A stretch of DNA of 64,000 nucleotides from NCBI GenBank assembly GCA_023247725.1, contig JAHFFW010000002.1:64160-128159 (forward strand), written 5' to 3'. The notes beneath the pieces are model-generated. The model had not been told where the DNA came from, did not search any database, and saw nothing but the letters and a program-made list of their open reading frames with translations. Within the stretch, counting starts at the first letter, position 1. The number at the start of each line of letters is the position of its first letter. Made by a program: the position numbers and the translations under genes. This stretch comes from Candidatus Omnitrophota bacterium. GTDB taxonomy: Bacteria > Omnitrophota > Gorgyraeia > Zapsychrales > JAHFFX01. Positions 45,001-63,998 of this stretch are shown here, one piece after another.

Positions 45001-48000
45001 GGGCGTTTCTTACGTTATCCCGATTGATCAACGACCTTAAGGCCAATGCAAAACTGGAACCTGAAGAATATGCCTTGCTTGGAGATCATTTTTTCAATTT
45101 GGGGATTATGTTGAGTCCCAAAATGGATGAGATTCCAATTCGGGATAAGGCCCACTTTGACCACCTTATGATCGACGATGGAAATCTGCAATACCTCGTA
45201 GATTCGAAAATTGTAGATGGCCTTGCTTCCGTAAATGCGGCCCAGGTGACCAGTTTTGACGACATGGTCAACCACCCGCAGAAATTGCTGCCTGTCCTGG
45301 AAGAGGCCGCCGCGGCGGTGGCTCCAGAGAGTCTATATCAAATGGCTCACGATATCGTGAACACTCAGTTGTCCGGTCTGGCAGAGAAATTAAGAGCAGG
45401 TCTTGCCGGAGTTTTGGGCGAACTGCATATAAACCCCCTGGAAAGAACGGATATCATCCTAATTAGTTCGGAAATGCAAGGTGATGAGATTCGTCAACAT
45501 ATCTCTGCAGAAACCGCTCATATGCTGGCCCGAAGGCTCACGTCTCCTATGGAACAACCCCCGGCAGCTTTTCTGGAGGCCCTTGTTGAGAATCGGCCAA
45601 TGAAGGACACGGATCCTGGCGTAGATGAGGCCTATGAGGCGCTTTTGCAAGACTATCTTGGCTATAAGGAAATACTAAGCCCTGCCGAGCAGGAAATCAT
45701 ATCACATATTACCCGGTCTCTGGATCGCATGAGCGACGCCGAATTGAGCCAGGCGTTGGAGCATTACTCGATTAGTGAGGAGGAACAAAGATTTAGAGAG
45801 ACTTTCGGGTTTGCTCAGGATACGCATCCAGTGGATGCCCGGTATAGCCGGGTCACCAATGCTGCCCGCAACAGCGAAGTTGTGCTGACCGATGTTTTTG
45901 AGAAAATGGGTTATTCCGAGCCCCGCAAAATGGCCAGGGAATTTTTGGAGCAAGATCCGCGTTATATTTCCCATGCCGTAGGCAGGACAATGGGAAACCG
46001 AATGGAAGATAAGGTGGATAAGGTCGGCGGGGATATTAAGCTTGCCATTCGGATTGCCGGAGACATGGCGCGGGAGGCCCCGGAATCCTTGCTAGACCAT
46101 CGGGATTTTGAAAAAGAATTCAACCGCCGCGCGGACGATCAAGATTATGTGGCCCGCCTGATTAAAGAAATTGCAGCCAGCGATCGCGAAGTGGCGCTGG
46201 TTCCGGCGTTCACCGCCGACAAGGCCCAGATCGGCACCCCAAGCGACAAAGATCATAAAGTTTCCTGGGAGCAGGAACCCAATCGCGAAGCCGCTGTGGC
46301 GCGTTCCTCTCAACAGAGTGATGCCGCTCAGGTGAACCCCAGAGAAGAAAGTTCTCAATCGAATGAACGGACCCCGGAGAGGGATCAGGTGCTGAATGAA
46401 AATGGGGAAGACAGCGTTCATGTAGGGGGTCTTCTTGCTGCTCCGCACCGGGCGGTGAATTTGCGAAGTTCATTGATTAATCTGTCCAGGCAGGCTGATG
46501 CACAGCCAGACTTCTTCAGTTCGGTTCTGAACAATACGGAAAAAATGACCGTGCATCCGGAAACCGCTTATGAATTCGTGAAGTGGATTACGCAAACGAA
46601 ATACGATGTTAATAAATTGCCAAAGATCTCAACGGCGATTCAAAAGATAAGACGATCCAAAGAAACGATCAAGGATTTACTTTCCGGTGAAGATTCGATC
46701 GTGAAGGTGCGGATGGCAGCGGAGATCATGAAGTCGGCCCAGTCGGGCGCGAATCAGAAAAGTTTTAAGGACCTCCTTAAGTATTTTGGAGAATTAAAGC
46801 AATCGGGCGTTCTTAAATCCGAGGATATTGAGCGGGCCATTCGGCTCGTCGCAGGACACAATCCAGCTCAGTTGATCGCGGCGGAGGCCACCCGAACCTA
46901 TTCTCAGGAGGACAATATGCCGGCCCTGCGGGAGTTGGCCGCCAGACATAAGGGAGAAATCCAGACGATCCCGCAAGCGGATCTGGTTGCGGATGCGAAC
47001 CGTGAAAAAGGGACTTTGATCGTTGGAGGAGAAGGCAGTGGCAAATCCACGCTGACTTATGCCCTGGTGAAGAAAGGATTTAATTATGGCGGGCAAGGCA
47101 TGGATATGCTGCGGACCGGTTCTCATCTGATTGCCGGCGTGAGCCAAGAGACTAGGTCCTATCCTCTCGAGTTTCGTTCCGGTGAGGCGGAGCCTGGCGA
47201 TCTCACCCGGGATCGTCCGGTCGAGACCATTCCGACGGCGCCTCGATTCGTGCCGGTTAGAGTGATCGTTCAAATGTTGAAAGCGCCTCAATTAACGAAA
47301 CCGGAGACGACCATTCGTAAGGCGACGGATACCGAAATCGCCGGATCCAGGGTTGCTGAGACCTGGAATTCCCTGAATCGTCCGTCGGTCGATTATCTGG
47401 TGGAAGTCCGGATGCCAGAAAAAGTGACCGATGAACAGATGGCGGTGGTCGCCCGCGATATCATGCGCGCCGACGCCGCGATGGCGGTGAGATCGCACAA
47501 TGAGGATTCCAATCCTTCCTATAAGCCCACGAACCAGACGGCCCAGACTAGGCCCTTTGACCTTACCGAGTTGACCAACCAAAAGATGGCGCTGCGGGAT
47601 ATCGAGCTTCAGAATTTGAATTTCCGGCCGCGGCGGTACGATGACCGGCGCGACGGGATGGTTGATTTCAATTTAAGCAGCGCGATGAATGACCAAAATC
47701 TTTCTGAACCTGCCGATGAGATTCCGCTTGCCGAACATCCGACCCTAGGCCTGGTCGCGCTGGCGCAAGTGGATCATTTTGTTATGGTGGAAGCCAGTCC
47801 CAGTCAAACTATCGGAATTTACTCTCAGGAACATGTGATCTGCCTGCTGGGCGATATTCGTGCGGAAAAGGTCTATGCGGACGGCCATCGGGAGACGATC
47901 GTTATTGGACACGCGCACATCAATCCGAACTCTCCAGCGGACCGCAGCGGCCAGAAGGGGCCGGCCTTCGCCAAGTTTGAGAGAGTTCTGGACTACCTCG

Positions 48001-51000
48001 GACAAACGCATCGTGACGCCTCGGGCCAAGAGTTCAAATTCGAAAACATTCAGATGGCTCTGGATATGGATGGGGAGTTCCGCGGCCTCGGTTCCAGAGA
48101 AGCGATTCTCGAGGCGGTCCGCCAGCGGAACATCACGGTCGTGGCTGAACGTGTCCGTGACCGGAATAATCCCAAGCAGGAGGAAGCCGATTCCTTTGTC
48201 AGCGCGCGCTATGCGGTCGTCGGCCATCATCCGGAGAATGACCGGACTTACGATATCCATCCGGTTATTTGGCAAACTGCCGCTAACGATGCGGGGAGTA
48301 CCGAACGCAAGCAGTCTATGTCTTTGACTACATCGGCGGATCTGAGAAGGATTGCCGAAACGCGACAGGCCGAGAGGACCCACCTTGCTGGTTCAGTGAT
48401 AGCGGCCTCAAGCCAGCGCCCGCAAGAAATTATGGCGGCGTTCGACGCCGCCTCCGTCGGCGTGCCGCGCGAGGCCTGGAAAATCACCTCGGAAGTCGAA
48501 ATCTATAGAGAGCAGATCGAGCGTTATGCGAAGATAAGAGATTCAATCGCTTCCGGAGATCTGAAAGTTAACCAGCAATTAGTCGGGACGATTTTGGGCG
48601 CCTTCCAGAAAGCCAGGGCCGAGCAAGAACCCACCGTCAGTGAATTGACCGATCTGCTGCGATTGGCGGCGCAAAAGAATTCAGCTGCCGTCCCGGCGGC
48701 GGAGGCGAAACTTGTTATTGCTGAGGCCGAACGGCAGGCGAAAGTCCAACTGGTGTCCCCCATCGCGACGGCTAAACCCGCGGCCAGCGTGTCGGCGCCG
48801 GTCCAGCTTTCTTTGTGGAACGAGGAGCCACCACAACCAAAAGCCGAGCAGTTATCGCTGCTGGATTTCCGGGAGGGGATAGAGTTAATGAGGCTATTCT
48901 CTCGAAAAAGGGACGTGGATCGCCAAGAGATCTTGGACACCGCGCAACGGATCCTCAGTCGAGAGCAGTACCAAACTTTTGTCAGTAGGATTGTTCCAAG
49001 AGTCGACCAATGGGCTGCTGGGAATTTTAAAAGGGCAAATTATAAGCTCGTCTATGATGTCCTTACGGATATGGTCAATCGGAAGGAACCGCGGAGCGAA
49101 TATGAATATATCTCCGATGAAGACATCGCAAATACTCTCAAGATCCGCAGAGATTACAAGGAAAAATTGCCAGGAATTCTCCAAAGCACCTTGGAATCGG
49201 AGAGGACGAGATTAAAGAAACTGGGCGTGGTTGGCGTGGAATTGATTGGGACCGCTGCTCAAGATCTTGAGACATTGCAGGTAAATTTTTTCTCGGCTCT
49301 TCATGATGCGTTCGGGAAAGCGGGAGATATTAAAGAACTCATTCCTACCGTGCCCGCAATTCCTGGCGTTTCTCCTGTGGTCATGGTTTCTGATGCTCCG
49401 GTGGGTATCAGGTTCTTGTTGCCTGACGCCGCCTCCGTCGGCAGCCAGCGCGAGGAGAAGGAAACGACTTCCAAGACGGAAACCGACCGGCCGGATTCGG
49501 TCTCTGTCGGCGCGCCGCAGCGAGAAGCTAGTCATATTGCCGATCGGGATGAACTTCCGGGTTCACCCAAGATCCCTCGGAGATCATTTTTTACTGCGAT
49601 AGCGGCGCCTTTCGTTTTGGCATCATCGGGGATCAGGGACCGTGCCCAGGATACTCGGGAGCGGCTGCGAGAACAGGTGCAACGTTTGCGCCAGGCCATG
49701 GAGCGGTTTAACAACAACACTAGAGCGATAAACAGCGCCAATACCATGGCTTCGGCTCTTCAAAATCGAAGATTAGCGGACAGCTATTCCCAGGCGACCA
49801 GAGAAATAGGATCAAGCAAACTGCTGGATAACGATATGGTACGCACCAGCCGGGATGAACTCGTTATTTCCGTGGGTGATCATTTTACTGAGGTAGGGCC
49901 TAACGATCAGCTCCTGATCATCATCTCCGGGCCTGCGGCGCAGATTTGGAGTGTCGTTCCAGGACTGGAGAATGATCGGCAGGTCCGTTATGTGCCGCTG
50001 ACGGTCGACCAGGGCCTGAACAATGAACAGAATATGCGCGAGCTGATCGACATCACTCGCTATTGGGGATATTCGGGCCAAAGGCCATTGGAGGATTTTT
50101 ATCGGGATCGTCAGAGAGAAAGTACAGATCGACGGGTTTTGATGGTGGGTCTGGAAGAATTTGGTTCCGGGCCCCGGCAGGACCGTAAAGAGCAGGCCGT
50201 TAAGCAGTTGGATGAGCTGATTAAGGACTACAATCCGTCGAGCATCCTTTACCTCGTCAATCAGACCGATCCGAATGGGCTGGTGAATACGATCCGCGGG
50301 CAGCGACAAGCCCCCAATTCCATCGAGGCGTTTCTTGCCAGGCAGTACTTGAAAGGAATCAAAATCGGGGTCAACAATTTTAACCGGCCGTTGGGAGACC
50401 TTTATTTTGCGGAGCCGGGGGGAAGATTCAGGTTCGCCCCGGAGACGCCCTACCAAAAGCCGCGCTACATTCAAATACCGGCGTCACAAAGAAGGATTGC
50501 GAGAAGAGACGCGTTCAAACTAGCGATCCTCGATTTGGCAAATGTCGATCGACAAGAGCAAGCAAGGATCCGTTTCGCCGAACCGAATACTGCTACGCAG
50601 GCGACGGCTCGCTTTAGTGTTCCTTCCGACTCCGCGATGGCGGAGAAGGCGACAACGAACGGATTGCCAGAAGATGCGGATCTGAGGAGGCGTGCCGAAG
50701 AGCGCACGATTTCCGAAAGGCCGACGGTGGAACAAGCCGGCGCCCGGATGATTCAACCCACCGACCTGTCCGGCGTAGCCAAACGCGCCGTGCCTGCCGG
50801 CAGGCAGGAAAGCAATTCGGCGAAGCCGGACGCCGCGATGGCGGAGCGGCGTGATGGTGAGTCTCTGCCCATTTCCGAGAGACCGTCGATAGATCAGGAA
50901 ACCCCGACCAAATTCGACATTCACTTTGCCTTCGATAATTTTCGTAAGCTGCCTTCGCATGTGCGGGAAATCTCGGATCAAATTGGGCAATCCGATATTG

Positions 51001-54000
51001 TGGTCGTGCAAACTCCCGAAGTATTCGACGAAATTTTTAATGCGGTTTCTCACGGCCTGTCTCCTGCCGAGGGGATGACGGCCATTCAACAGAAGGCTCA
51101 AGAAGAAAGAATTCAACTCAATTTGGATTCACCCCTGAAGGCCTTACTCACGGCGATCCATGGGTCCGGGAAAACCATTGTAGGTAATCGTCTCCCCAGT
51201 GACCGGATTCGGTCCTCGAATGAGGAAGCGTTTACCGAAATTACCCAGGCGCTGAACCGGGGTATCACCAGAGGCGACATGAGAAGCGCGGTCAAGAGTT
51301 ATAAAATACTTACCGAAAAGATGGGTGCGGCGACGGCGGAGCATGGCAGAGACATGGTGGCCACCATTCAAAAGGTTCAGCAGCAATTTCCCGATAAGAA
51401 GAAGATTTTGGTCATCGACGGGCAATCCAATACCGCCCCCTACATGAATTTGACGCTCAACCAGGATCTATCCTCCCAGCAGGGTGTTGCTCAAATCACG
51501 CGGGAATTTTTGGATAATCCTACAACTCCGGTGGTGTTCTCTCTGGACGACGCCCTCAAGTGGGATATCGCATTTCAGGAATTGAAGATTAAGCCGGCAA
51601 AAGAGTTGAGCGATCAGGACGTCATTCCGGCGCTGGTTTCATTGATATTGGTGAATTCCATCCCCGAGTCTCAGAGAAGTGAAATCGATTTTGCTGGGAT
51701 CAACAAAATCGCCATAAGAATTGATTCGATGGATAAGCTTTCTGGACTGCAGCGGGAAATGCAGGCGCATCCGATAACGAGTCACGAAGATTTCCAGAGT
51801 AGAGTTTACTTCTGGCTGGTGAAGGGAGATTTTGCCAGACCAATGGAAATTAAGCGGGTTCTGGGTTTTGACGCCGCGATGGCGCAGCGGCGCAAAGAAG
51901 ATTCGACCATTTCTTATGAACCGACGCAGACAGAACAAACGGCCACGGCCCGGCACTCCGACGCCGCGATGGCGGCGCGATTGCAAAGCCGGGATTTAAC
52001 GACCGCCGATCCGACACAGGATCAGTCGGCAGTTATTGCGAGCCGCGCGATTCAAAACGACCTTGAGAAGGCTTTACGGGCCATTGGGCATATTTACAAG
52101 TCTAGTGATTCTGAGGCGCTTTCTAAGATGTCCTTGGATCTCGTCAAGAGCGCAGTTTTCAATGAAGTTTATGGGGCGTCGCCAGATCATTTTATTGCCG
52201 CACTTTCTCTCGCGGAGTCGCCGGCCCGCAACTGGGCTACCGCTTGGTTAAGGCAAAGATATAATGCTTACGGTCGGACTGAGATGTTCCGGTATCCTTC
52301 TCAAGACAGGGAATTCGAAGTCGCTTTAGGTACCCTGGAACAAAAGCCGGCGCCGTTTAAGGCTGTATTATTGGGTTCATCAAACGGAGATGACCCGGTG
52401 ACCAAGGCCTTGACTATGGGGGATCACCCGAACTTGCAAGGGCGGCGCATTGATGTGGTGGGTGTCGACATCAGTGCTCAGGCGATCGCGAAAGCAAAAG
52501 AAAATCTGCAGTCAGGCAAATTCCGGATCGATGCGGAATATATCCAATATCTTTTCGAGTACGAAGGTTTCAATGCGCTTCCGGAGGCCATCAAGAGCAG
52601 ATTGGCGCAGGGCGGAGATGTCTCCGAACAGATCAACAGCTGGATCGCTGAGCGGTTGCCCGCCTTGCAACAGGAAATCCGTTTCGTAGAAGCCAGTATT
52701 CTCGAGGAAGCGTCTTGGAAAGAAGTCCGAACTGCCGATGCGGTATTCATCAACTCAATTTTGTATGAAGTTCCTAAGTCGGCTCAAGCTGAGTTTTTCG
52801 AGGGTCTGAAGAGAAACATGAAACCCGGAGCTTTCTTATTCTTATCGACCGATTACTTTAGGGATGGCGAGTTTGAAAGTAGTTGGTTGGATAAAAAAGC
52901 TTATGGGGTCTATCAGGTCAAAGATGCCGCGATGGCGCAGCGGCGCAAAGAAGGTTCGACCACTTCTTATGAACCGACGCAGAGAGAACAATCGGCCACG
53001 GCCCGGCACTCCAACGCCGCGATGGCGGCACCGCGCGAGAAAGAATCGACAACTTCCTATAAACCGACGGAGAGCGAATCATCGGCCGTGTCCGCGAGTC
53101 GTTTGGTGAAATTGACACCATCTGGTATCCTGAAATTCGCGGCCAGAGTGGCGCCGACGAGGGACTTGCGCGAGCGCGTCATTCAGGGATTGGGCGCGAA
53201 GGCCTTAGCATCGTCCGCACCGGCGACTAGGGCGCTGCGCCGGCTGGCTCAATCGCAGCGGCCGCAGATAGCGCAACCGGCTTTTGACCAATTGCTGGCC
53301 AATGTCCGACAGGGCCATTACCGTTCAGTTGAAGAATTGGTGAACCTGGCGGAGCAATTTAGGGTCAGCGATTTAATGAAGGAATTTTCGCAAGCCACGA
53401 TTGGGCTTGGTGTGGCCGGGCTCGATCGACAGCAAACTATTTCCGACCGTCATTGGTCTCAAGTTCTGGGTACTGGAAGTTATGGCCACAGGGATCATAT
53501 TTTATGGCTCGCGGAAAATGTTACAAATGATCCTCGAAGACCGCAATTGGCCGAGGCCACGATGAAAGCCCTCGAAACGCTGGCCTTAAGAGGGCATCCC
53601 GATGCGATTTCGGCGTTGAGTCAAATGGTCAATTCATCTCATCCACAACAAGCCGAGCGGGCGCAAACCGTCCTCGCGATGGCGGCGATCAGCGGACACC
53701 AGTTGGCTCAATATGAAGTGGCTAATAAGGTTGAAGGCGACCCATTCATTTTAGAAAGAGAAGAATTCATGCGGGCTAATAGAGCTGTGGCCCAGATCGT
53801 GACAGAAATCGTTTCGGATCGCCGCAAATTGACTTATCAGGAGGATGAAGTGAATCGCCGGGGTGATTACACGGGCAGAAAGACGCCCCGGTTTGACCAA
53901 TCGGTCCATCGAGATCTCATGGAGCAGATTAAACGTGCCATTGTTCACGGAACGCCGCAGGGCCAGGCGCTCGCCATTCAAGCCTTGGAGCGCAGCGGCA

Positions 54001-57000
54001 TCCTGGAGGACCCCTCTGAATATTATTATTTTCATTTGGAGCCGGTCGTGTTGGCCGCTGCGGCAGGTTCGCAGCCGGCGATTGATTTGTTGGGGAAGGA
54101 ATTGGCGCGGCAGGGCGCGAGATTAGAACAGGATTACTACCGGAGTAGAGAAAATGATTTCCGTTTGAACAAACAATACGATCGACAGAATTGGGAAAAC
54201 ATTCTGGATTTATTTGCCGTGGGGATGCGATATCCGCAATTGCGGGGACAGGTCTTGCCAATTCTGGAGAGGGCGATTGCACGCGGCGATGAGAAGGCCT
54301 TTGCCCTGGTTCGTGACAGCATCCGGGCGTTATTGTCTGACTCCGCGAGTGTCGACCGGCAAAAGAATCTGCCCATTCCGCTGGCGGATGACCTAAGCAC
54401 GATATCCGGCAACCCGACGGAAGCGGTCGCCTGGGTGAAGGCAAATGAAGCAACCCTCAAATCCGACCGTGAGATTCCACCGGGCGCCATCCGGTCTCCT
54501 CCGACGGAACGACGCGAAGCCTACGCCATTGATAACACGATTCCCCAAGAATATATGGACTTACGCGATCGTGATGACGTTCTTCAAGCAATTCGTAACG
54601 CGGCCGATGTCGTACCCCAGCCCCAGCCTGCTGAAACCATTGCCCAATCAAGAAGTGTTCCGCGGATTGAGCTGCCACCATTTCGAGAAAATCCTCAACG
54701 GATAGAACTTCCGCCCTTCCGCGAAGACTATCAACCGCAAAGACCACCCACATTCCGTTCTGAAGAACCGAAATTTTCTCAATGGACCAAGTGGTTGGTC
54801 AGGGTTGCGGGCGTTGCTACGGCTCTTCTCGCGTTTCAATTGAATCAGGAAATACAACCGCCTCCGCAGTCCCCGCAGGGACAAGTTGTTCCGCCAACAC
54901 CAGCAGATATTGCCAAGAAACGGGAAGAACTCCGACTCTTCAGTAAAATTCCGCCAGCACCGTCGACAAAACCCGGTACGAGTACGAACGGTCCAACAAC
55001 ATCCGAAAACAAGACGAAGGAACCAGGCGCACCTTCTTCTACCCCAGCCGAACGTGGCCAGCCGTCTCCCGGGGTCATTACCCCGCGCTTACCGTTGCCG
55101 GATGGTGTCTTTCCAGAGGTCAGAAGGATGTTTCCACAAACTCCGGGACAAGAAGGGCGAGGACCAACTTCTCCTTCCCGGCCTCAAGAACCTTCTTCTC
55201 AAGAAAGGGAACAAACTTCTCCTTCCCAGCGCGGCGCGCCTTCTCAGGGAGCCGGCAATCAACAAGGGACACCGGCTACCGGTGACATCGTGATCCTGCC
55301 CGTTCGGCCTTTGACCCCACAAGAACAATTGTTCTTGAATTTATTCGGGCTTGAAAAGAAACAGCCCGAGAAACCTTCGGACAGCAGAACTCCAGGCGTT
55401 GGGGAGGGGCGGATCGTCATTGGATCGATGGAATTCAAGTTTCGCCTGCCCACGATCAGCCGCGGTGACCGCGGTCCGGCGGTGCGGACGCTTATGCGAA
55501 TTCTGAGAGTGGTGTTTGACGGCGAGGATGGCATTCGGTCTCTTGCGGGCAAGACGAATCCGCTCACTGGCCGACCTTATGATGAGGAGTTTGCCCGTCA
55601 AGCCTTACAGCTATGGCAAACAGCCCGTCGAGACAGCGAATCTATTGAGGAATATACCGCCAATGTGGAACGAGCGATTGTCGCCCTCCAAAACGCATTC
55701 GATATTAGAGAAGACGGTGATGTAGGGCCCGAAACCTGGAGTTTACTCGGTGAATTGCTGGAAGCATACCAGCGCCTCATAGAAGAGCGCCAGAAACCGC
55801 GGCAAGTCGCTTCTCTGGAAGGTTCGATCAATACGTTGTTGGAGTCCATGGGAAGTCCGTTTCGAGTGCCGTCCAATACGGATCAATCCACCGATGCTGC
55901 AAAGCTGGAGACCCGACAGGAACAAGATTCCACAGTTGCAAGACCCACGGAGCAATCCAAAGCCCAAATGATTCCGTCCTCTGATGCCGCGAGTGTTACT
56001 TCGAATGAAGCGGATCGCCAAGAGGATCGAATGGGTAAACCTGATCAGTTGAAACAGGGTATTTCTACACCCAAAGATGAAATAATTGAGCCAGAGTATA
56101 AAAAGTCGCCTTTAAGAGGGTTTGCCAAGATGTGGAATCAGTTCCGAAATAGAAGGCTGGTGCCTTCCAAATCTTCTACAATTGGACCTCATTTTCCGAC
56201 GATCTCCCCCACACTATTGCAAATATTCCATCTTAGTGCCTTACCTTCCTCTAATAATACGCCGGTTGGAACTGATGAACGCGATCGTGGTTCAAAGAAC
56301 GGCGCGTTGCCAGCACCCCCAACCCTTCCTGCCCCATCGGAAAGCACCTTGCCTGAGCCGCCAGGCAATAGTGGATCAAGTGGTGGTTTTGCGAAGGCAA
56401 CCAGCGCTATTGTTCAGTACGTAAAAAGCCTAGCCTCTAAGGATGAACATCTAAATTCTGAAATTATCAATAAAGAACAGGAAAAAGGTAGCCAATGGGA
56501 GCGTCTTGCCTCCCGTAAGGACCCAACGAGCAAATCAGGCGTTGGACCTTGGAACATTAGAATGCTGTCCGCCATTTCCGCAATGGCGCAGACAGCAGTT
56601 AGGAATGTAGGAGCGCGGATAACAAAAATTGGAAGCAGTGTTGTCAATGCAGTTAGCAGTTTCTTTGTAGCAGAAGCATACGCAGCAGAAGTAGCAGGTA
56701 GTGAAGTAACACGTAGCACTGTTCTGAATGCAGCAAAGCAAGTAGGTAATGGACTCAATTTGGCTGAAAATAGTTCCGGCAACGGGGCTGCTAAAGCTGA
56801 AGAGAGATCCTTATCGGTGGTTCCCGGAGTGCGGCGAACGACAGTTCGTGCAACCGGTAGTAGGGTAGTGAATGTAGAACCCTCTAATCGCAGTTTGGTT
56901 AGAGTTATCGTCAAGTTAGCACAGGCAGTAAAAGCAGTAGTCAGAAGCAGAAGTACGAATAAGCAGTATCGCTCTGTCTATGGCAATAAGGTTGCTGAAA

Positions 57001-60000
57001 CCGGATCTGCCATTGATGAAAGTGCAGTAGAAACACCGAAGTATCGTTCTCATCGCATCATCGGTAATGCGGTTAGTTTAGTTGAAGCCGGTGCCCGTTA
57101 CACGGTAGCGGCCATAGCTCAGATTATCCGCAATTCCAAGGTTCTTAGAGTGTCTGTTCGTAAGAATGGACAATTTAAGAATAAAGCCTTAGATTCCGAG
57201 ATCGATGGCAGTAGAAGTAAAGCTCAAGCCGTAACGTTAGGCTTTGAGCCGTATCGTTCTGGTAATAGAGAAGCAGGTAATAATCTCCGGTTCGCAATAG
57301 GTCTGGTCTTGGCGAAAGCCGTGACTGGAGCTAAAGCTGACTTGAGAGCGTTATTGAAGGTTCTTGGAGTTTATCTCGCCGAAAGGCTGGAAAAGGTCCG
57401 AGAAAAAATCTTTGGTTTTGCTGGTTCCCTCAAGGTCCGTATCAATCGAGTTGGGGCGAACGTCGGCCGGCAGGCCAGAGAGGGTTCTGACAAGCGTGTC
57501 AGCCATGGCACGGCTGCAGTCTTTACTGGCAAGTTCAGCAGTGTTGCAAGTAGGGTAATTGCCCTAGCAATAGCTAGGATCTTTACGTTACTTACAGTTC
57601 TTAGAGTCCGCCTGGCAGAAGTAATCAAGGTACAGGCTGAAGCTGAGAATAGCTTCTTGGAGTTTGCACTCTCTACCTTTGATAGTGGTAGAGTCGACGC
57701 ATTAGAGACTTCAAGAGACACTGTTACTAGTCGTAGAGAAGATGAACGTGGTTCTCAGCGTAATGTTCCAGTGGTGGAAGCAGTGGAAACTGCTGAAGCA
57801 CTGGCATCTGAAATTCTCGGAGTGCGTCAAGGTGCTGAAAAAGACCGAAATGCGACCGGGAATTCCGACGTTACCGGGAACGTAATTCTTGCTCAGCAGG
57901 ATCGTTCAGTTGGTGGAACTGGCAACGAAGTCAACCTTGCTGAAGCTGTTAACGTTAACGCCCTCATGGGTGATCGAACAACAGCCGCAGCAAGCAGTGC
58001 TTCCAAGCCTGAGAATTTCGGAGTGCGATTGGCCAAATGGCTCAACGTGATCCGAGAGTGGTTTTTGAAGACTGTCCCCTCGAGCCTAAACAGGATCGAG
58101 GTTAAAGCTTTAAGAACCAACCGCAAGACCACCAATAAAAATGTAGCTCCAATTGTCAACACTGAAACGAATACGTTCGTTTCAGTGGCTTTGCAAACTC
58201 TGTCTGTCAAAGTTCGCAATGCAAGAGAACTTTGGCAACGGAGAAAGTCTGTTTCTGCAGTCCAAGAGTTGATCTCTACTCAGATTTCCAACCTACGTCG
58301 TCTCATTCAAACCCTCAAAGAATTCGCTAACGTTCAATCAGTTCCTAACCAAGGAGGATTCCCATGGACAAGAATATTCGTTTTGACCATTTTGTTGAAT
58401 TCACTAAGAACGACTGCCTCTTTTGCGCAGGCCGTCAACCGGGCAGCAAACGTCGAAGTTTATACCTCATCGTTAACCACACCGGCCGGGTCTATGAACG
58501 ACATTTTAATAGCTGGCGCCTTGTCGATTCTGATGCTGAGTCTCATATTCGCCGCGAGGCCGAGAGCGCCAAGCTCGGAGGTGTCCCGTGTTACGTCACA
58601 CACAGCCACTTCAGCAATTAATCCTGCCGCAAGTATTCTTTCTGCCGCTTCATTAAGTAATCCTCATCGTGTAACGATTGATCAATCATCCATGTTTGAT
58701 TCTGCCCAAGTTGAATTGCTCCCCAACATTCAGGCCCAATTGGCCTACCTGGCCTTGAATGGTCAGAATGCAACCTCGCTGATCGATACCATCCTCACTT
58801 CAGAAACCGGAGACACCACCCAAGCCGAAAATCTCCTTCGGCAACTTCAACGTAATGCCCAAATGAGGCCTAGCGATGATGTGTTAAAGCCGTTTATTCT
58901 GTCGAGAGTCCACAGCATTAACCTAAAAAATCCGACCAGCAGCGACTTGAAATATATGATTTGGGCTTCCCGGAGAGGTTACCGTTTATCAAATGAGATG
59001 CAGAACTTAGTTGGCCGGGCCACAACCCTAATTGATGATGACGAAATGATGAAGGATTTGGCCGTGCAGATTTTGCCCTTTATGCGGGGTGCAGCGACCG
59101 AGCGCTTGGTCGATGTGCTCCGCCCCGAAGGTGTGGTTCGTTTCCTGGCTAGCGATACCATGCGTATCGTAGGCATCCAAAGGGGAGAGGTTTTGCCGGA
59201 ACGTGAAATTCTCGAAGTCATTGCGCTCAGAGTCAAGCGGGGTGTTTATGATCGAGATGCCTTAAAGGCGGAATTTGACCGGCTTTATTCCAGTGATTCT
59301 CAGCAGAATTTATTGGAAGGCATCTTTGACCGGAATATGGATCGTTTGGAAGCTCTGGCGAAGTTGCTCGAGGAAGATGAAGAAGATAAAGAACAGCAGC
59401 GCATCTTCTTCAAACCGGAAGATGACTTGGTCGGCTTGACGGTGCGTTTGCGCGAAGCGACGGTGGTGCAAGATGAGGACGCGCTTCAACCTGGTCACCA
59501 ATTCGACCAAGATTTATTGCATCGCCGCTTAAGGCGGGAAGGACAGCTGGAAATTCATGACCTGGAGCGGCAATACAGCGAATCCCTCAAAGAATTGGAC
59601 AAAAATTATGCCAATCGTCACACCAATGACAGCCAGAAGAAGGCCTACAATGACGATAAGAAAGATTTGGACAAGTGGCTGACCGAACAAAAGCGCCAGG
59701 CGAAAATCCGCCGTCAGTTGCAGGAACTGGGATTTGCCTTGCACACTCACAAGATCGTGCAAGGGGATCTGAGGCTGTTCCGCCGATCCTTGGGAACGAT
59801 GGTCTATGACGGTCTGTTTGTCGGTGAGAAGGACATCCTGGCGCTGTTGAAGAAAGACGTGGATGTTATGGACATGATGGCGCAATGGGATACCTTAGTC
59901 GATCCAGCGCAGCGGAAAGAATTTTACCGAGATTTCATGATCGCTCCGATGATGGCCAACCGCGGCCAATTTGATGTGAGCCAATTGATTCTCCGGTTGT

Positions 60001-63000
60001 CTCATCCGCAGCATATGACCTTGTATCTGGAAGATCATATCGAGCTGGTTATTCCGGCTCAGCAAGCGCAAGTTGAGAATGATGCCCAATTCATCCGCGA
60101 GCAGGCCCAAGTGGCGGTTGTGCCTGGCGAAACCAATGAAGACCTGGGGGACATTGCTTCCAGCCGGGGAGGACGAAAACTCATGCAGTCGCTGCCTCTG
60201 CCCAACGGGAATGTCTGCGTGGCCTCCATGCCCGAAGAAACCGCCCGCCGCGGGTTCAGGTCGGCCGGTGACCTCGAATGGGGCCTGAACCGATATCGCA
60301 TCATTAAAGATTGGTTGAAGCACACCTTCGGCCGGCCGCGGATCACGCAATTCATCAGCCCGCGGGGGCAGGAAGCCCTCGCGCATGCCGTGCGCTCCTC
60401 TAATCCTCAACGCACCCTGATGATGATCAGCGGCTTCGCCGGGGCAGTGACCAATGATATGCTGGACGAGTTACGATCGGTTAATTTCGCAAGTACCAAT
60501 AATGTGCGCACGATCCTGACGGTGGAGGCCATCTTCGACGCGATCCGCGCCGATCACGAAGAACCACGAGACCGGGCCAGGCTCGAAGAACTGCAAGAGC
60601 ACTATACAGAATATGTTCAATCCATTTCGGATCCGAGCTCAGATTATTTAAAGACTCAAACAGCCTTTGCCAACAGTTGCAGTGCGGCGGCAGATGCCAG
60701 CGATAAGGCTTATGTCGCTTACCGCCAACATGCGGATGGGGTGAAAACCCAGGGAAGAATCTTTCAGCTTTTGGCGATTGGGAACATGACGGTTAAGGAT
60801 GCGGTCGAACTGATGGAAGATACCGACAGCAAGGGTTATAAGGCCATCCAGGAAGAAGTTCAATACGATCTCGATAATCGCAAGACCCAACGTGGCGGCA
60901 AGCTGGTCAAATTCCGCGCCAGGGCCATGGCGGCCATCCGAGCTCAGAGAACGTTTGGATTCTATATCAAGAAATATGTCTTGGTCCCGCTGGCCGTTCA
61001 GATTGCGGCCATTGTGGTGCTTTATTTAGTGTTCCATGTCATCGCCGTCATGGCTGCAACATGGGGGGTTGTCCACCTTTCCTTACTGGGTTTTGAAATT
61101 GTCACCATCAATTTCGCTGAGGCTCTGACCTTCAGCCACGTTGTTGCATTCAATCCGATAGACAAAGCCCAAGCCATTCTACCGTTTATTCTCTCGGTCG
61201 TCTTGCTCATTGCCCGTCACGAATACGGCCATGATCTGCACGCCTTCATGGTGGGTGATCCTAATAAACAAGGAACAAATGAACCATCTCTTTGGAATTT
61301 ATTTAAGAATATTCCGCAGTATATAAAACCAATGAATCTTTTCGGGATGGTCTTCTTTGGCGGTCTGGGACAGGGCGGTTCGACGACCATTAATCCCAGA
61401 GTTATGAGGAACAAAGGATACCGGTTTGTCGCTTTAGGTGGACCGTTATTCAACATCCTGGGCGCCTTGAGCGGACTTATCCTTTGGGGAGCGATGAGTG
61501 TATTGGGTCACTTTGTGACCATCCCGGCCTTGATCATCTGGGGGACTAAGATCCTGATCCTGGTTGACCTTTACTTTGTTATCCCCAACCTCATTCTGGC
61601 CATCTCGGTCAAACTTCCGATGATGGGCGACTTGACGTCGGACGCGGCCCATATCTACTTCGGCAAAAAAGCCGTCATGAATGAAGACAAAACAAAGAAC
61701 CACATACCGTTCTGGTTTAAGATATTCAGCTGGGTTCTACTCGCCGGATTCTTCTATTTCCAATATGCTCATTTTTATCGTTGGGTTAGTGCCATTGGGG
61801 CCCGCATGGGATTGACGGCGATCAATCTGCCTGCCCTCCAAATCGCCGCAGCCGGCTTACCGTTGAAGGAAATCATGATCGTGATTGGCATTATTCTCTT
61901 GATCGCGATGGTGGTCAAGCTGAGGCACGGAGAACCCGGAAAAGCTACTGCGATATTTTCGTTGTTCGGATTGTGCGTCGGGATTTATCTCCTCATCGGT
62001 TCAAACCAGACGTTTACTGTCGGCGCGATGGTGACTGGCTTTATGAAAATTCTGGCAGCTGTTTCTACGACCTTCTTGACCATTGGAATCGTCCTCGCCT
62101 TGGCCGTCCTCATCGCTCAATGGGCCTCGAAGCACTCCTCACAAATTAAAGTGAAGGTCACCCGGGTGTTGCTGATCCTCGGGGTCGTGTCCGCGCTCTT
62201 AGGCGCTAGCGGAGTCCTCTATCGGCTTCATGCCGCCGGAGAGCCGGTACAGTCTTCACAGACAACGGTTGTTCAGCCTCGCGCCCCGCCGCCAGGGGGC
62301 ACCACCACGCCGACACCCGCGGCCGCCCAACCACCGGCTCCGGCGACGCAAACCACGCCGACCACGCCGGCGCCTGCCGCTCAATCGTCACCCGCGCCGG
62401 TCGCCGGGCAACCGGTCCAGCCGGCGGGAGCCGGGACTCAAGCTCCGCCGTCTCCGACGACACTACAAACCACCCAGCCGCCGGTTGCAAATCCGCCGCA
62501 GGCTCCGGATGCCGCGCAAGCGACTGCGAGTTCAGCTGCTGGCCAGGCCTCAGCCCCAGCTCCAGTGCCCCCGCCACCCGCATCCGGCCAGGCCTTTGCT
62601 TCTGCGGGGCCGCAAGGCTTGCCAGATCGCACTGATTTATTGATCGTTGCCGACACCGCGAAACTTTCGCAGGATCAAAAGGATGCTCAGTCTCTGCACA
62701 TTTATACATTGGATGAAATCATCTGGAAGTCAGTGGAGAATCTGAAACGCCGCGCGCAAGCCCCGGACGCCGCAACGAAGGATGCTGCCGCCGTCACCTT
62801 GGCCGGGGCTCTGGAGCCCCGCCAGCTGTTCTTTGGGAACGTGGAAAACGGCCGGGTCCTGATGCTCAAGGTTAGCGATGAGCCCAAAATGATCTTCTTC
62901 GACAATACTCTGGCGGCGGCCGGCGATAAAGCGGGGGTTGATCCTGCCAAGCGGGTCGATATCACCTATGTTAATCTAACCCGCGATAATAAGGTGTGGT

Positions 63001-63998
63001 TCAATCTTCCGGGCCACGGCGAATTTGTGGTGGACCAGGAAGGTGTGGCGCAGAAGCAGGTGAATACCCGAGCAAGTGCCGAAAGAAATCCGGCACAGCC
63101 GCAAAATAAACCTTCCCCCACCTCGGCCAAAGAAATCGTGTTGGCAATTATCTTGGGAATTGCGCTCATTCTCGCCTGGAATAGTTTCAAGAAAATAAAG
63201 CGGACGTACTGGATTAAGAGAATCAAAGAACTCCTGGCGCAAGCAAGAGGAGCGCTTACGGAGGGCAAATGGCCGGAAGCTGGAAAAGCCTTGAAAAAAT
63301 TGGAAGACAACAACGCGGTTCAGGATATGGAACCAGAGCAAAAGGAGGAAGTCCAATCCCTTCAAGAAGAATGGAATAGACAGAAAAAGGAAAAAGAGGA
63401 AGAGCAATTGGGTGCCCGAATACCTCCCGAAATTCTGGGCAGAATGTCGCCTGAGTTTCTGGCCCGGCATATCCGTGCCCGTTTCCATGAACGCATTAAG
63501 GCTAACGATGCCGATAAAAATCTAGACCCCGATGAAGCCAAGCATCAATTACGAGTAGTTCAAGAAGAATTGATTGAAGACTTAATGCATTCGGTCATGC
63601 TGGATGTCAGTTTGTTGGCCAAGGCGGCCGTCAAGATTTTGGAGGAATTTCTCAAGGCCGAGGAAGCCCAAAAAGACAATCGAGCCAACTCGTGGGCGGG
63701 CGAGACGATTTTTGAGGCTATTCGACGGAAGGCAGAGACCTTGATGGCCCAAGGCGAGATCGTAAGAGCACGGATGAATCCCGGCGAGAAATTAGCGGAC
63801 GGAGATTTGATTATCATTGATCGTCGTGACGGCATGAGGTTGATTTTCGGCGAGCATGCCTTTGGAGAAAACGACGTGCATCCCTATGCCTATGACCTCG
63901 GAGGAGGCGGACGGCAAACGATTAATCCACAGGATATTGACCATGGCCTGATTGATAAACTGGTCAAACCTAAGTCGGCGAAGAGTGAAAAGCCGGTG
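3..63998 (+). CDS. Internal fragment of a giant multidomain protein gene (at least 21,332 codons within the window; 5' and 3' ends lie outside the window)
   Basis: Seen in sequence: reading triplets from position 3 I found no TAA/TAG/TGA through 63996-63998. I re-checked the frame at both window ends, in AT-rich stretches (about 29700-29900 and 32400-32460) and near 41160. All + strand ORFs in the supplied track have start mod 3 = 1 or 2, none = 0. A stop-free frame cannot appear as a bounded ORF, which explains its absence from the track. The frame shows a strong GC-rich third-position bias (gcc/ggc/ccg/gtc/acc). The translation reads as bona fide protein with catalytic motifs. Inference: I translated by eye and cannot fully exclude one missed stop; the track's lack of any frame-3 ORF argues against that. 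Confidence 0.9.
2019..2750 (+). repeat. Three in-frame copies of a ~20-aa motif [LIV]PSDA[EQ]QD[DEA]SP[EQ]A[VA][EK][IV]A[KL]QK (copies at about 2019-2078, 2499-2558 and 2691-2750)
   Basis: Seen in sequence: ...ctgccgtcggacgctcagcaggatgactctcccgaggccgtcgaaattgccaaacaaaag / attccttccgacgccgagcaggatgagtctccccaggcggtcaaaatcgct / gtaccttccgacgccgagcaagatgcctcccccgaggcggccgaagtcgcc. The third copy is followed by LAEEAMAEGPPDH, which recurs as LAREAMEGPQAP near 10590-10640. Confidence 0.75.
6570..8470 (+). other. Hydrophobic, Gly/Ala-rich helix-rich region (at least 8 candidate membrane-spanning or amphipathic helices); possible polytopic membrane domain I
   Basis: Translation contains runs such as FIVWIVADAATILFKGFGWSLVA, MLLMSYMGLTGQKMSMDGLVYLLGWSF, IAAIAMIFFGRALF, VLLTTATMALGAVVVGA, LWGMFLLAALFAKPLL, MMAAMVILPGMAEG, LLGAGLATATVASSVGLAYGGFSMATA, GYGVMLLGLSTPGVM and LLVAISNIVKDAVHMVPQLMAFNMVIPVAQHLAAI. 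Hydrophobicity was judged by eye only. Confidence 0.4.
11440..12880 (+). repeat. Duplicated linker block (SVTFTVP[S/G]S..AIQ...LALA[A/V]LAAV...SASPAVDGA[N/S]VTDHQQKIAL) flanking an HEXXH module; 62-bp near-identical DNA at 11589-11650 and 12819-12880; a third degenerate copy at about 14760-14960
   Basis: Seen in sequence: ctccgccagccccgccgttgacggggcca[a/g]cgtcactgaccatcaacaaaagattgccttaag occurs twice, 1.23 kb apart. Both copies are preceded by SVTFTVP... and an Ala/Leu-rich LALAALAAV segment. The 14.8-kb copy shares LILAALAAAVAPDRHDSAQVNS. Confidence 0.8.
11950..12200 (+). other. HEXXH zinc-metallopeptidase-like module 1 (HEFGH at 12018-12032), possibly ImmA/IrrE-like
   Basis: Seen: ...RDVVMAHEFGHAARQHRQLMEKNPLANKEEAELTQSEVHQLERIVQGNELQADQDAVDIAV. 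This has HEXXH plus a downstream E-x-Q-A-D-x-x-A motif resembling the Glu third-ligand motif of ImmA/IrrE-type zincins (established family knowledge). The assignment is by motif only. Confidence 0.4.
13950..14012 (+). other. Internal twin-arginine (Tat) signal-like motif SRRSFLKGAMGAALTPRATAQ
   Basis: Seen: tcc cga agg tct ttc tta aaa ggg gcg atg ggt gct gcc ttg aca cct cgc gcg aca gcg caa. This matches the canonical [ST]RRxFLK followed by a short h-region and an A-x-A-like site. An in-frame Met (ATG about 13821) lies 43 codons upstream. It could be a vestige of gene fusion or chance. Confidence 0.3.
17927..18450 (+). other. Clan-CD cysteine peptidase-like module (caspase/legumain/clostripain-type His...Cys dyad): His codon 18135-18137 (FGAHGPY), Cys codon 18264-18266 (VLLESCFTGKG)
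   Basis: Seen: KAIVVYTKADNNG...IDFGAHGPYTADSMNYGKGGALTVGRWQALRGKVSGALAEKGRVLLESCFTGKGG. An H-G is followed about 43 residues later by hydrophobic-x-E-x-C. This is the spacing and context typical of clan CD peptidases (established family knowledge). Motif-level inference only. Confidence 0.45.
19215..19335 (+). other. Predicted transmembrane helix (LVMVPKLVAAVVAVALIVPAIASAAGAVG)
   Basis: A run of about 28 aliphatic residues preceded by WRGR. Seen in the translation. Confidence 0.6.
19340..20290 (+). repeat. Pro/Thr/Ala/Ser-rich low-complexity segment containing a 78-bp (26-aa) tandem repeat x ~2.9 at about 19535-19760 (VEPIHSPIGTEL[TA]APTAPDSS..V.PL)
   Basis: Seen: ccggtggaacccatccattccccgatcggtacagagttaacggcgccaacggcacctgactcttcc... 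is repeated with a few substitutions, then decays into a generic P/T/A-rich sequence up to about 20290. Confidence 0.8.
20585..20700 (+). other. Predicted transmembrane helix with a basic stop-transfer tail (ATGAAITGIGLLATGLAGYGVY-RQRRQRSARNR)
   Basis: Seen in the translation. With the helix at 19215-19335 it would bracket the P/T-rich segment on one side of a membrane. Confidence 0.55.
23660..23880 (+). other. TPR-like helical repeat(s) (EYREARDLDPDTFEYAAMLGEAYVRLGK...)
   Basis: The motif pattern A..Y..A..DP with small/large residue alternation is typical of TPR (established knowledge). Assignment by eye. Confidence 0.4.
26080..26460 (+). other. TPR-like repeats (IEDFRQALSLTKDPRD...AIEYFREAVDLDPGEKHYREQLANA...FFEEAVRHAPDNQDF)
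   Basis: About three consecutive 34-aa-like units with A/F/Y positions and [DN]P turns. Assignment by eye. Confidence 0.45.
26980..28150 (+). other. Long coiled-coil-like region (heptad-like E/K/Q/L-rich: ...QQRAELLEEINRLKTEADGAQIDKDQRKG...AELAEKIAEKRSALQALEGQIQVQQRELLAG...)
   Basis: Seen in the translation. No heptad scoring was computed. Confidence 0.4.
29337..29399 (+). other. Internal Sec-signal-peptide-like sequence MKALLVGALMAIPAFASA|HG with in-frame ATG (29337-29339) and upstream aggg purine tract
   Basis: Seen: cgacgcatagggATGaaggcgcttttggtgggggcgctcatggcgattcccgccttcgcgtcggctcatggc. This has an n-region (RRIGMK), a hydrophobic h-region and an A-S-A cleavage-like site. It may be a fusion vestige, an internal start or a TM helix. 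Confidence 0.35.
30100..31270 (+). repeat. Module with a paralogue at about 45300-46210 (shared ~65-aa segment: A[MI]RIA[AG]D[IM]AR[DE].....[QD]HR[AD]F[LE][EK]EFN[KR]RAD[ND][PQ][ED]Y...REVALVP)
   Basis: Seen: IVVAMRIAADIARDPNSASRQDHRAFLEEFNKRADNPEYLNSVKQAIDRTAQEHQVALVPVARQ (about 31090-31280) versus IKLAIRIAGDMAREAPESLLDHRDFEKEFNRRADDQDYVARLIKEIAASDREVALVPAFTAD (about 46030-46215). Confidence 0.6.
35280..35520 (+). other. HEXXH zinc-metallopeptidase-like module 2 (HELGH at 35379-35393), ImmA/IrrE-like pattern
   Basis: Seen: ISRIIMNLDAGGFRNQTAAAVHELGHHGLAQITNADLNNNKPEPQNGKLREQQMVGEGIAETYARDGL. This has HEXXH plus a downstream E-G-I-A-E-T-Y-A motif. Confidence 0.4.
40200..40420 (+). other. HEXXH zinc-metallopeptidase-like module 3 (HELGH at 40263-40277), ImmA/IrrE-like pattern
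   Basis: Seen: FMSILGHELGHNQVIALYKRFGPEDYREKGWVPVTKDFGVIEEFGGDLFAADYIDN. This has HEXXH plus a downstream E-E-F-G-G-D-L-F-A-A-D-Y motif. Confidence 0.45.
43800..44260 (+). other. Class I (Rossmann-fold) SAM-dependent methyltransferase-like module (PrmA/HemK-like motif I and post-II)
   Basis: Seen: DLTGKTVLIAGFGDGIQAILAKKKGAKRVIAVDNNAAVLDLARENTRLNGMGGQIEFKTAWAEDLTPDEIGPIDVLVANLPG. Motif I is a degenerate G-x-G-x-G-like glycine-rich loop (LIAGFGDG), followed by an acidic loop (AVDNN) and a DVLVAN[IL]P motif characteristic of PrmA-type methyltransferases (established knowledge). Confidence 0.55.
46990..47110 (+). other. P-loop NTP-binding (Walker A) motif GGEGSGKST (about 47029-47055)
   Basis: Seen: REKGTLIVGGEGSGKSTLTYALVKKGFNYGGQGMDML. 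The motif GxxGxGK[ST] is preceded by a hydrophobic beta-strand. No Walker B was assigned. Confidence 0.5.
51870..53034 (+). repeat. Pair of ~110-bp direct repeats (about 90% identical) at 51870-51981 and 52923-53034, encoding linker DAAMAQRRKE[DG]ST[IT]SYEPTQ.EQ.ATARHS[DN]AAMAA; they flank the CheR-like module
   Basis: Seen: gacgccgcgatggcgcagcggcgcaaagaagattcgaccatttcttatgaaccgacgcagacagaacaaacggccacggcccggcactccgacgccgcgatggcggcg versus gatgccgcgatggcgcagcggcgcaaagaaggttcgaccacttcttatgaaccgacgcagagagaacaatcggccacggcccggcactccaacgccgcgatggcggca. Confidence 0.85.
52300..52900 (+). other. CheR-like (protein-glutamate O-methyltransferase-type) SAM-methyltransferase-like module
   Basis: Seen: FKAVLLGSSNGDDPVTKALTM...RRIDVVGVDISAQAIAKAKENLQSGKFRIDAEYIQ...ADAVFINSILYEVPKSAQAEFFEGLKRNMKPGAFLFLS. 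This parallels CheR motifs (IWSAGCSTGEEPYS.A..., I.ATDIS..AL.KA..G.Y, FD.IFCRNVLIYF...Q..V...F...L.PGG.L). Established family knowledge, by-eye alignment. Confidence 0.45.
54880..55290 (+). other. Pro/Ser/Thr/Gln-rich low-complexity linker with short TSPS/QEP repeats, preceded by a weakly hydrophobic helix (about 54790-54850, WLVRVAGVATALLAF)
   Basis: Seen in the translation: ...QPPPQSPQGQVVPPTPAD...GPTSPSRPQEPSSQEREQTSPSQRGAPSQGAGNQQGTPATGD. Confidence 0.6.
55450..55770 (+). other. Peptidoglycan-binding domain-like module (PG_binding_1-type signature)
   Basis: Seen: GDRGPAVRTLMRILRVVFDGEDG...YDEEFARQALQLWQ...NVERAIVALQNAFDIREDGDVGPETWSLLGEL. This matches the G..V..LQ..L......DG.[FV]G..T..A[VL]..[FW]Q...L..DG.VG..T...L pattern of PG_binding_1 (established family knowledge, by-eye). 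Confidence 0.5.
56100..58900 (+). other. Compositionally distinct segment of the giant ORF (visibly lower GC; Ala/Val/Ser use gca/gta/agt instead of gcc/gtc/tcc). It encodes a Val/Ala/Ser/Arg/Asn-rich region plus two predicted TM helices (about 58363-58440 and 58490-58565).
   Basis: Seen by eye: e.g. gcagttaggaatgtaggagcgcggataacaaaaattggaagcagtgttgtcaatgcagttagcagtttctttgtagcagaagcatacgcagcagaagtagcaggtagtgaa. GC not computed. Frame +3 remains open throughout. Confidence 0.5.
60980..62235 (+). other. Polytopic membrane region (at least 8 predicted TM helices) carrying HEYGH (61218-61232); reminiscent of M50/site-2-protease-type intramembrane metalloproteases
   Basis: Seen: VLVPLAVQIAAIVVLYLVFHVIAVMAATWGVVHLSLLGFEIVTINF...ILPFILSVVLLIARHEYGHDLHAFMVGD...FVALGGPLFNILGALSGLILWGAMSVLGHFVTIPALIIWGTKILILVDLYFVIPNLILAISVKLPMMGD...IMIVIGIILLIAMVV...LFGLCVGIYLLIG...FLTIGIVLALAVLIAQW...VLLILGVVSALLGASGVLY. 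HEXXH next to TM helices plus a later N-x-x-P-x-x-G-D-like segment loosely parallels the M50 HExxH...LDG pattern (established knowledge). Weak, motif-level inference only. Confidence 0.35.
62240..62610 (+). other. Pro/Thr/Ala/Gln-rich low-complexity linker (PRAPPPGGTTTPTPAAAQPPAPATQTTPTTPAPAAQSSPAPVAGQPVQP...)
   Basis: Seen in the translation. It generates the Arg/Pro-rich artefact ORFs 62230..62643(+) and 62438..62656(-) in the track. Confidence 0.7.
63120..63190 (+). other. Predicted transmembrane helix (IVLAIILGIALILAW) followed by a basic stretch (NSFKKIKRTYWIKRIK)
   Basis: Seen in the translation. Confidence 0.5.

Follow-up and report, generated by a model that had tools for sequence, protein, structure and literature searches.

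A divergent, split PG_binding_1-like module in a giant Omnitrophota protein

Does a giant protein of an Omnitrophota bacterium carry a peptidoglycan-binding (PGB) module, and would such a module bring the protein to a cell wall, its own or another cell's? The question is raised by a 64,000-nucleotide stretch of contig JAHFFW010000002.1 from a Candidatus Omnitrophota assembly (hereafter the window), in which a sequence-only reading had noticed a peptide resembling PG_binding_1 (PF01471), had placed it next to protease-rich regions and had proposed that the giant protein containing it acts on a bacterial envelope. We found that the quoted peptide is present as written in frame +3 and that it lies, as proposed, within a giant protein, the window being one stop-free frame of 21,332 codons (Table 1). 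Because this frame is open at both window ends, the giant gene is longer than 64 kb. None of the other frames of the window contained an open stretch of at least 300 codons, and the minus-strand open reading frames (ORFs) in a mechanical ORF list reached 272 aa at most. Sequence comparisons indicated that the module is very probably a true but divergent homologue of PG_binding_1, interrupted by an insertion that we found in two other proteins only.

Homology of the module to PG_binding_1

A Pfam scan of a 180-aa segment returned PF01471 as its sole match (E 1.8e-4, 22.0 bits). The score fell to 18.3 bits when the module was scanned inside a 1,666-aa chunk. The chance expectation for a Pfam match of such quality, to any family, is ~0.02 (~120 segments of this size in the window). 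We also observed weak matches on the same 35 residues to a PHROGs endolysin family (E 0.048), an NCBIfam peptidoglycan hydrolase (E 0.05) and the Protein Data Bank (PDB) sequence 5tv7_A (E 0.048), none of which is independent of the Pfam match.

We searched 1.84 billion cluster representatives exhaustively with phmmer, using aa 17640-18839 (1,200 aa) as the query. Six proteins reached E<=1e-3, and all six aligned to query positions 845-975, which correspond to the PGB-like module. In four of them, Pfam recognised 5-8 canonical PF01471 repeats (268-510 bits). We drew 27 canonical repeats from these repeat-bearing proteins and generated a custom profile, which matched the module with 35.8 bits in two collinear pieces: profile positions 2-22 aligned with TISRGDRGPAVRTLMRILRVV (7.3 bits) and positions 37-69 with EYTANVERAIVALQNAFDIREDGDVGPETWSLL (26.6 bits). 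By contrast, the best of 5,000 shuffles of the module reached 10.0 bits, the best score elsewhere in the giant protein was 7.6 and that in the reversed protein was 7.8. Only the N-terminal match is fully independent, because the repeats came from proteins that had been picked by similarity to the C-terminal piece of the module. Comparison by hhalign of the variant family (the module and the two other proteins with its layout) with the canonical repeats gave a probability of 97.8% (E 7e-13, 35 columns). Searching the PDB with a profile of these three variant members returned PGB-bearing chains as the top three matches: 5tv7, LdtA (PDB entry 7aj9, listed as YcbB) and 4lpq, an ErfK-family protein. 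The presence of a PG_binding_1-like module, as first suggested from the sequence, was therefore borne out by the Pfam match, phmmer, the custom profile and hhalign. There were no internal paralogues of the module in the window.

We also modelled the fold. A single-sequence AlphaFold (AF2) model showed a hairpin and five helices, with a predicted local distance difference test (pLDDT) of 75 and a predicted template modelling score (pTM) of 0.69. A second AF2 model, based on an alignment of the three variant members and 26 canonical repeats, reached a pLDDT of 82.8 and a pTM of 0.74. Its top PDB matches were SleC, the EpsAB periplasmic domain 4g54, 5tv7, SleB, LdtA, 1lbu, phiKZ gp144, AP3 endolysin and CtpB, with match probabilities of 0.96-1.0 for most of these entries and 0.72 for LdtA. 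Nearly all of the top PDB and viral matches of this model were PGB-containing wall enzymes or anchors, and the viral ones were almost all endolysins. Because its alignment held canonical PGB repeats, these matches are consistent with a PGB fold and are not independent proof of it.

Split architecture and relatives of the module

The PGB-like domain is not contiguous: an entry strand and helix 1 are parted from the helix 2-loop-helix 3 unit by an insertion of ~45 aa (Table 1). The N-terminal piece aligns with the L+xGxxGxxVxxLQxxL stretch of canonical repeats, and helix 1 spans model residues 28-42, with a block-mean pLDDT of 91-95 over model residues 21-40. The insertion, which is missing from the 26 canonical repeats in the alignment, contributes an extra helix at model residues 64-80, and its residues N55, P56, T58, G59 and Y62 are invariant in the three variant members. 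PF01471 domains have a three-helix fold with two DGxxGxxTxxxPho repeats that are important for ligand recognition (PMC12547810). In the C-terminal piece, the second of these repeats is intact (DGDVGPETWSLL, aa 18571-18582, nt 55713-55748). The sequence-only reading had stated that the quoted peptide follows the PG_binding_1 consensus. The homology stood, and the assignment of DGEDG and EEFARQALQLWQ to consensus positions did not, as the alignment places both inside the insertion.

Table 1. Features of the giant reading frame at and around the PGB-like module (window coordinates)
Feature	Position (nt)	Strand	Residues (aa)	Remarks
Giant-protein frame	3..63998	+		Stop-free, runs past both window ends; contains the PGB-like module
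SAM-dependent methyltransferase (CheR / Methyltransf_25-like)	52278..52844	+	~17426-17614	2.6 kb upstream of the module
Candidate membrane anchor WLVRVAGVATALLAFQL	54792..54842	+	18264-18280	17-mer; lysine/arginine 3 in N-flank, 0 in C-flank
Low-complexity linker	54843..55400	+	18281-18466	Pro/Ser/Thr/Gln/Gly-rich; ~18% Pro
Predicted beta-hairpin before the domain	55401..55448	+	18467-18482	Strands at model residues 3-9 and 12-18; pLDDT 57-72
N-terminal piece	55452..55520	+	18484-18506	Entry strand and helix 1 (TISRGDRGPAVRTLMRILRVV...); 7.3 bits
Quoted peptide, whole	~55467-55757	+		Frame +3; GDRGPAVRTLMRIL aa 18489-18502; DGEDG aa 18507-18511; EEFARQALQLWQ aa 18528-18539; VERAIVALQNAFDIREDGDVGPETWSLLGEL aa 18555-18585
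Insertion, ~45 aa	55521..55649	+	18507-18549	DGEDGIRS; NPLTGRPY (nt 55557-55580); extra helix EEFARQALQLWQTARRD
C-terminal piece	55650..55793	+	18550-18597	Helix 2 (NVERAIVALQNAF), DGxxGxxTxxxPho repeat, helix 3; pLDDT ~92
Downstream low-complexity segment	55803..56552	+	18601-18850	Ser/Thr/Glu/Gln-rich; no recognisable domain
Hydrophobic-helix cluster ("S2P-like" region)	61002..62222	+	20334-20740	HEYGH at nt 61218-61232 (aa 20406)

Among the 1.84 billion cluster representatives, phmmer found the same split layout in two other proteins only. One is MCB9757364.1 (P0005), a hypothetical protein of 1,113 aa from a Candidatus Omnitrophota metagenome-assembled genome (MAG), and the other is MCK5591497.1 (P0006), a partial hypothetical protein of 531 aa labelled Candidatus Paceibacterota. 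They are 34% (over 101 aa) and 44% (over 82 aa) identical to the giant protein, respectively. All three variant members have in common a GxxGP start, a D...L...NP[LI]TG[RK]xY insertion and the stretch IR[EP]DGD[VL]GP[EQ]T. Each of the two relatives weakly matched PF01471 in the same C-terminal half as the giant protein did. Outside the module they have nothing in common with the giant protein and, unlike it, they are ordinary-sized. In L001:10001-20778 of the Omnitrophota MAG (JACKFI010000005.1), the gene for P0005 is followed by one GH26-like, one TP_0789-like and one DUF1302/Wzi-like gene as well as two MacB/FtsX-type ABC pairs. Such a neighbourhood is envelope-related, and we counted it as support for the wall tether discussed below.

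When the three-member alignment was searched against genomes, only the P0005 locus and one small Spirochaetales ORF were returned. Locus searches of metagenome and viral collections with this alignment gave no match, nor did tblastn against phage and plasmid collections. Word-index searches using the PGB-like domain, the three-member alignment or the upstream methyltransferase region found no relatives of the giant protein, and locus searches of genome and metagenome collections with a 500-aa giant-protein query were equally empty. The giant protein has almost no detectable homologues outside the relatives of its PGB-like module. The Spirochaetales ORF (MAG JABTUL010000004.1, L004:5848-6498, plus strand) encodes 216 aa with an N-terminal hydrophobic anchor; it has only the insertion stretch LAGQINPLTGEPY...LWQ (LAGxxNPLTGxPY) in common with the module and lacks the PGB halves. 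Because the search pattern pre-selected that stretch, this match is of doubtful significance and unproven. Going by this ORF, the insertion motif might be an independent element.

Surroundings of the module

The methyltransferase that had been noted upstream was found as a domain dependent on S-adenosylmethionine (SAM), matching PF13649 (E 3.6e-6, 28 bits against a cut-off of 27) and PF01739 (E 1.3e-5). The protease-rich neighbourhood was not: at E<=1, Pfam detected no peptidase, lysozyme, lytic transglycosylase, amidase, LysM, SPOR or OmpA family in nt 45003-63998. Searches of PHROGs, NCBIfam and PDB sequences (phmmer) over nt 49200-59402 revealed no wall-processing catalytic domain, and a catalytic-motif scan of the flanks gave nothing convincing. 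The lytic transglycosylase or amidase domains for which the sequence-only reading had suggested searching the flanks were absent from the Pfam, PHROGs, NCBIfam and PDB sequence results alike, and these searches detected no peptidoglycan-cleaving catalytic domain of the endolysin, SleB, SleC, SltB or AmpDh type beside the module. The lone peptidase-like signal was to Peptidase_M48 (E 2e-3), below cut-off and ~43 kb upstream, when that segment was scanned alone. At E<=0.01, the whole window contained only methyltransferase, TPR and weak EF-P/TOM20-like matches, and the Pfam matches elsewhere in it were to a PrmA-like methyltransferase, TPR repeats and, weakly, P-loop families.

The downstream membrane region had been described as S2P-like. 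It gave no Pfam match at E<=10 and no PDB match, and it lacks the second M50 motif, NxxPxxxxDG. We rejected its identity as a site-2 protease (Peptidase_M50, PF02163); the region is a group of strongly hydrophobic helices with HEYGH beside them. HExxH motifs occur four times in the giant protein, at nt 12018, 35379, 40263 and 61218 (aa 4006, 11793, 13421 and 20406), and only the first has family support, through the weak M48 match.

Other features of the giant protein were as follows. The PrmA-like SAM methyltransferase at nt 43875-44165 (aa ~14625-14721) matched PF06325 with 34 bits against a cut-off of 22 and is the best-supported Pfam domain of the window; a word-index search with the 500 aa around it found no homologue. 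A tandem duplicate of RIELPPFRE (RIELPPFRENPQRIELPPFREDYQ) lies at nt ~54660-54740 (aa ~18220-18245), just upstream of the candidate anchor helix. Mid-ORF, at nt ~29286-29400 (aa 9762-9800), QRKLSVFRRIGMKALLVGALMAIPAFASAHGT resembles an internal Sec/Tat-type signal peptide, with a twin arginine, a hydrophobic core and an AFA|S site, and with four lysine or arginine residues before it and none after it; it could reflect internal processing or a history of gene fusion. Cysteine is strongly depleted, with 10 in 21,332 residues (0.05%) and none in aa 17640-19181 (nt 52920-57545). The gene is non-repetitive in the window save for an 81-bp tandem repeat (nt 19532-19732, ~2.4 copies, 81-85% identity) and a 26-bp run of 7-bp units (nt 16827-16852).

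Possible roles of the module and its relation to known systems

The reading that we favour, to which we assign a probability of roughly 0.45 for the full mechanism, is that the module is a non-catalytic, linker-tethered wall anchor on an extracytoplasmic loop. The segment WLVRVAGVATALLAFQL would be a membrane anchor with its N terminus inside and its C terminus outside. From there the Pro-rich linker would reach across the periplasm, so that the module could bind a murein layer, most simply that of the cell itself. That part of the membrane-embedded giant protein would then be fixed to the sacculus. The family-specific 45-residue insertion, with NP[LI]TG[RK]xY and the extra helix, takes the place of the short loop and first DGxxGxxT repeat. 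A non-catalytic tether is the most likely role because there is no catalytic partner nearby, low-complexity linkers lie on both sides and a hydrophobic segment with the N-in/C-out pattern lies upstream. This segment is among the 22 most hydrophobic of the giant protein. In all three variant members, the module follows a hydrophobic segment and a linker, and the lysine and arginine counts of the N- and C-terminal flanks of that segment (3/0 in the giant protein, 3/1 in P0005 and 4/0 in P0006) would, by the positive-inside rule, place all three modules outside the cytoplasm. Omnitrophota have complete peptidoglycan synthesis (bioRxiv 10.64898/2026.06.07.730766), which we counted in favour of binding to the cell's own wall.

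Several observations weigh against a wall-anchoring PGB domain outside the cytoplasm. The 22.0 bits scored against PF01471 fall short of the gathering score of 23 and cover profile positions 25-57 of 57, so that the module does not reach the gathering score over most of the profile. A lack of a significant PF01471 hit, which was to count against the original proposal, is thus true in the strict sense only, and it is overruled by phmmer, the custom profile and hhalign. Structure prediction gave a divided answer: Foldseek with the single-sequence model matched no PGB structure, and the PGB matches of the alignment-based model are partly circular and weak, none of them reaching E<=1e-3. Of the two DGxxGxxT repeats that characterise PG_binding_1 (PMC12547810), one is intact; the first is degenerate, with IEEYTANV at the aligned position. 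DGEDGIRS, directly behind helix 1, may be a first repeat that has shifted; it is not conserved in P0005 or P0006. As a membrane anchor, WLVRVAGVATALLAFQL is marginal, with a Kyte-Doolittle value of 1.22 and a summed biological-scale value of 3.5 over 17 residues, and apart from it there is no clear membrane helix between aa 9795 and 19182. Without this marginal helix, the module would therefore be in the same compartment as the domains at aa 14625-17614 that depend on SAM or nucleoside triphosphates (NTPs) and are expected in the cytoplasm. The module of P0005 formally falls inside the cell if its N-terminal signal-like helix and its second helix are counted. Topology predictions for Omnitrophota giant proteins are, moreover, unreliable (West-Roberts et al.).

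These points bear differently on the other explanations. If the resemblance to PG_binding_1 were due to chance, a helical stretch of a very long protein containing Gly and Asp would have matched a short, motif-rich profile, as the subthreshold Pfam score over only 33 residues and the large number of segments of this size in the window might suggest. However, the 35.8 bits of the custom profile stand against at most 10.0 in the shuffles and at most 7.8 in the rest of the protein or its reversal, the significant phmmer matches all fall on the module, the hhalign probability is high and the N-terminal piece is collinear. We rejected chance on the shuffles and decoys and consider it highly improbable. 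A repurposed fold, in which the PGB-like scaffold was kept and murein binding was lost, would leave the module, which might then be cytoplasmic, with a role in protein-protein contacts or intramolecular packing. There is a precedent in the homologous fold of matrix metalloproteinase (MMP) prodomains, and the MMP-10 proenzyme is among the weak fold matches (rank 39). The loss of the first repeat, with a conserved insertion carrying its own motif instead, points the same way, as do the lack of a confident membrane helix between the module and the upstream SAM- and NTP-dependent domains and the helix count of P0005, which gives a cytoplasmic domain. On the other hand, conservation of the second repeat and of the helix 2/3 signature is high across the three variant members, which suggests that the canonical surface is under selection, and the Pro-rich linker and positive-inside pattern favour an outside location. 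We regard repurposing as somewhat unlikely.

Alternatively, the peptidoglycan that is bound may be that of a prey or host bacterium: the module would bring the giant protein or a processed part of it there, and catalytic parts or partners would attack that cell. PG_binding_1 accompanies wall-cleaving enzymes in most characterised proteins, and such enzymes account for almost every fold match. Of the two closest variant relatives, one belongs to an Omnitrophota MAG and the other to a contig labelled Paceibacterota, and both of these groups are thought to include host-dependent, ultra-small cells. Predation and wall degradation have also been proposed for giant Omnitrophota proteins (bioRxiv 10.1101/2023.11.21.568195). 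Yet no glycosidase, amidase, lytic transglycosylase or peptidase family was found within ~6 kb on either side of the module, and the whole window shows few domains at E<=0.01, together with the distant, weak M48-like match. In addition, the single cultured relative of such organisms preys on archaea, and archaea have no murein. Targeting of a foreign wall is therefore unlikely in our view. A further and rather improbable idea is that the split module with its NP[LI]TG[RK]xY insertion represents a distinct, undescribed domain family with a changed ligand, such as the wall or a surface polymer of a partner cell in place of the cell's own murein, and a role of giant envelope proteins in host attachment. 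Three members were found among the 1.84 billion cluster representatives, each with its module behind a membrane segment and a linker, and the lineages named for the two relatives, Omnitrophota and Paceibacterota, are believed to be attached to other cells. The non-catalytic tether stays our preferred reading. That the giant protein acts on a cell envelope, as the sequence-only reading had proposed, is an inference from one isolated, atypical binding module.

Known carriers of PG_binding_1 include the zinc DD-peptidase 1lbu, phiKZ gp144, SleB and SleC, SltB2 and SltB3, L,D-transpeptidases and CtpB. Like the domain of these proteins, the module has a GxxGxxV entry strand, helix 1, a helix 2 of the AVxxFQ type (AIVALQ), a DGxVGPxTW repeat and helix 3. 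It differs in being split by ~45 residues with their own motif and extra helix, in its degenerate first repeat, in scoring below the Pfam gathering cut-off and in having no recognisable wall-processing catalytic domain attached. The logic of the proposed tether is similar to that of GspA/ExeA/EpsAB of type II secretion, in which a periplasmic PGB domain, linked by a membrane helix to a large cytoplasmic part, serves as a non-catalytic anchor to the cell's own sacculus. The EpsAB domain 4g54 was the fold match of rank 5 (119 aligned columns, root-mean-square deviation 5.2, sequence identity ~17%). Unlike GspA/ExeA, the giant protein has no adjacent AAA+ ATPase, the nearest P-loop match being weak and ~2,800 aa upstream; it has no GspB-like partner and no secretion-system context, the window being one ORF, and its membrane helix is marginal. 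We did not assign it to the GspA/ExeA family, and the analogy is functional only.

The protein resembles the multi-enzyme Omnitrophota giants of the 'Archaeovorin' type (West-Roberts et al. 2023, Nielsen & Lui 2026) in several respects: its ORF is stop-free over >64 kb, its domains, methyltransferases and TPR among them, are sparse and highly divergent, membrane helices are scattered along it and close homologues are almost absent. The best relative of its variant domain also comes from an Omnitrophota MAG. Archaeovorin-type giants are encoded by genes of >90 kb and contain glycosyl transferase, glycosyl hydrolase, methyltransferase, peptidase and NUDIX domains. By contrast, in the 64 kb analysed here we detected none of the glycosyl hydrolase or transferase, NUDIX, SecA-like, C39 and dockerin domains that such giants typically have. 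The main texts of West-Roberts et al. 2023 and Nielsen & Lui 2026 make no mention of a PG_binding_1 module.

PG_binding_1 is already known as a very widespread wall-binding domain, and giant Omnitrophota-type proteins have been described. New are the split variant, whose insertion is conserved and which only three proteins of the library contain, and its occurrence in a giant protein. By itself the finding is modest: the domain is very common, and this is a divergent copy. 'Cell-wall degradation' becomes a less compelling reading, because a binding module with no lytic domain beside it argues for anchoring rather than attack. Almost nothing is annotated in the giant proteins of uncultured bacteria, and each secure module helps to show how such a polypeptide is placed with respect to the envelope. 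If the module binds the wall, it would mark this stretch of the protein as periplasmic, and a 140-residue fragment would offer an experimentally tractable handle on a protein of >21,000 aa.

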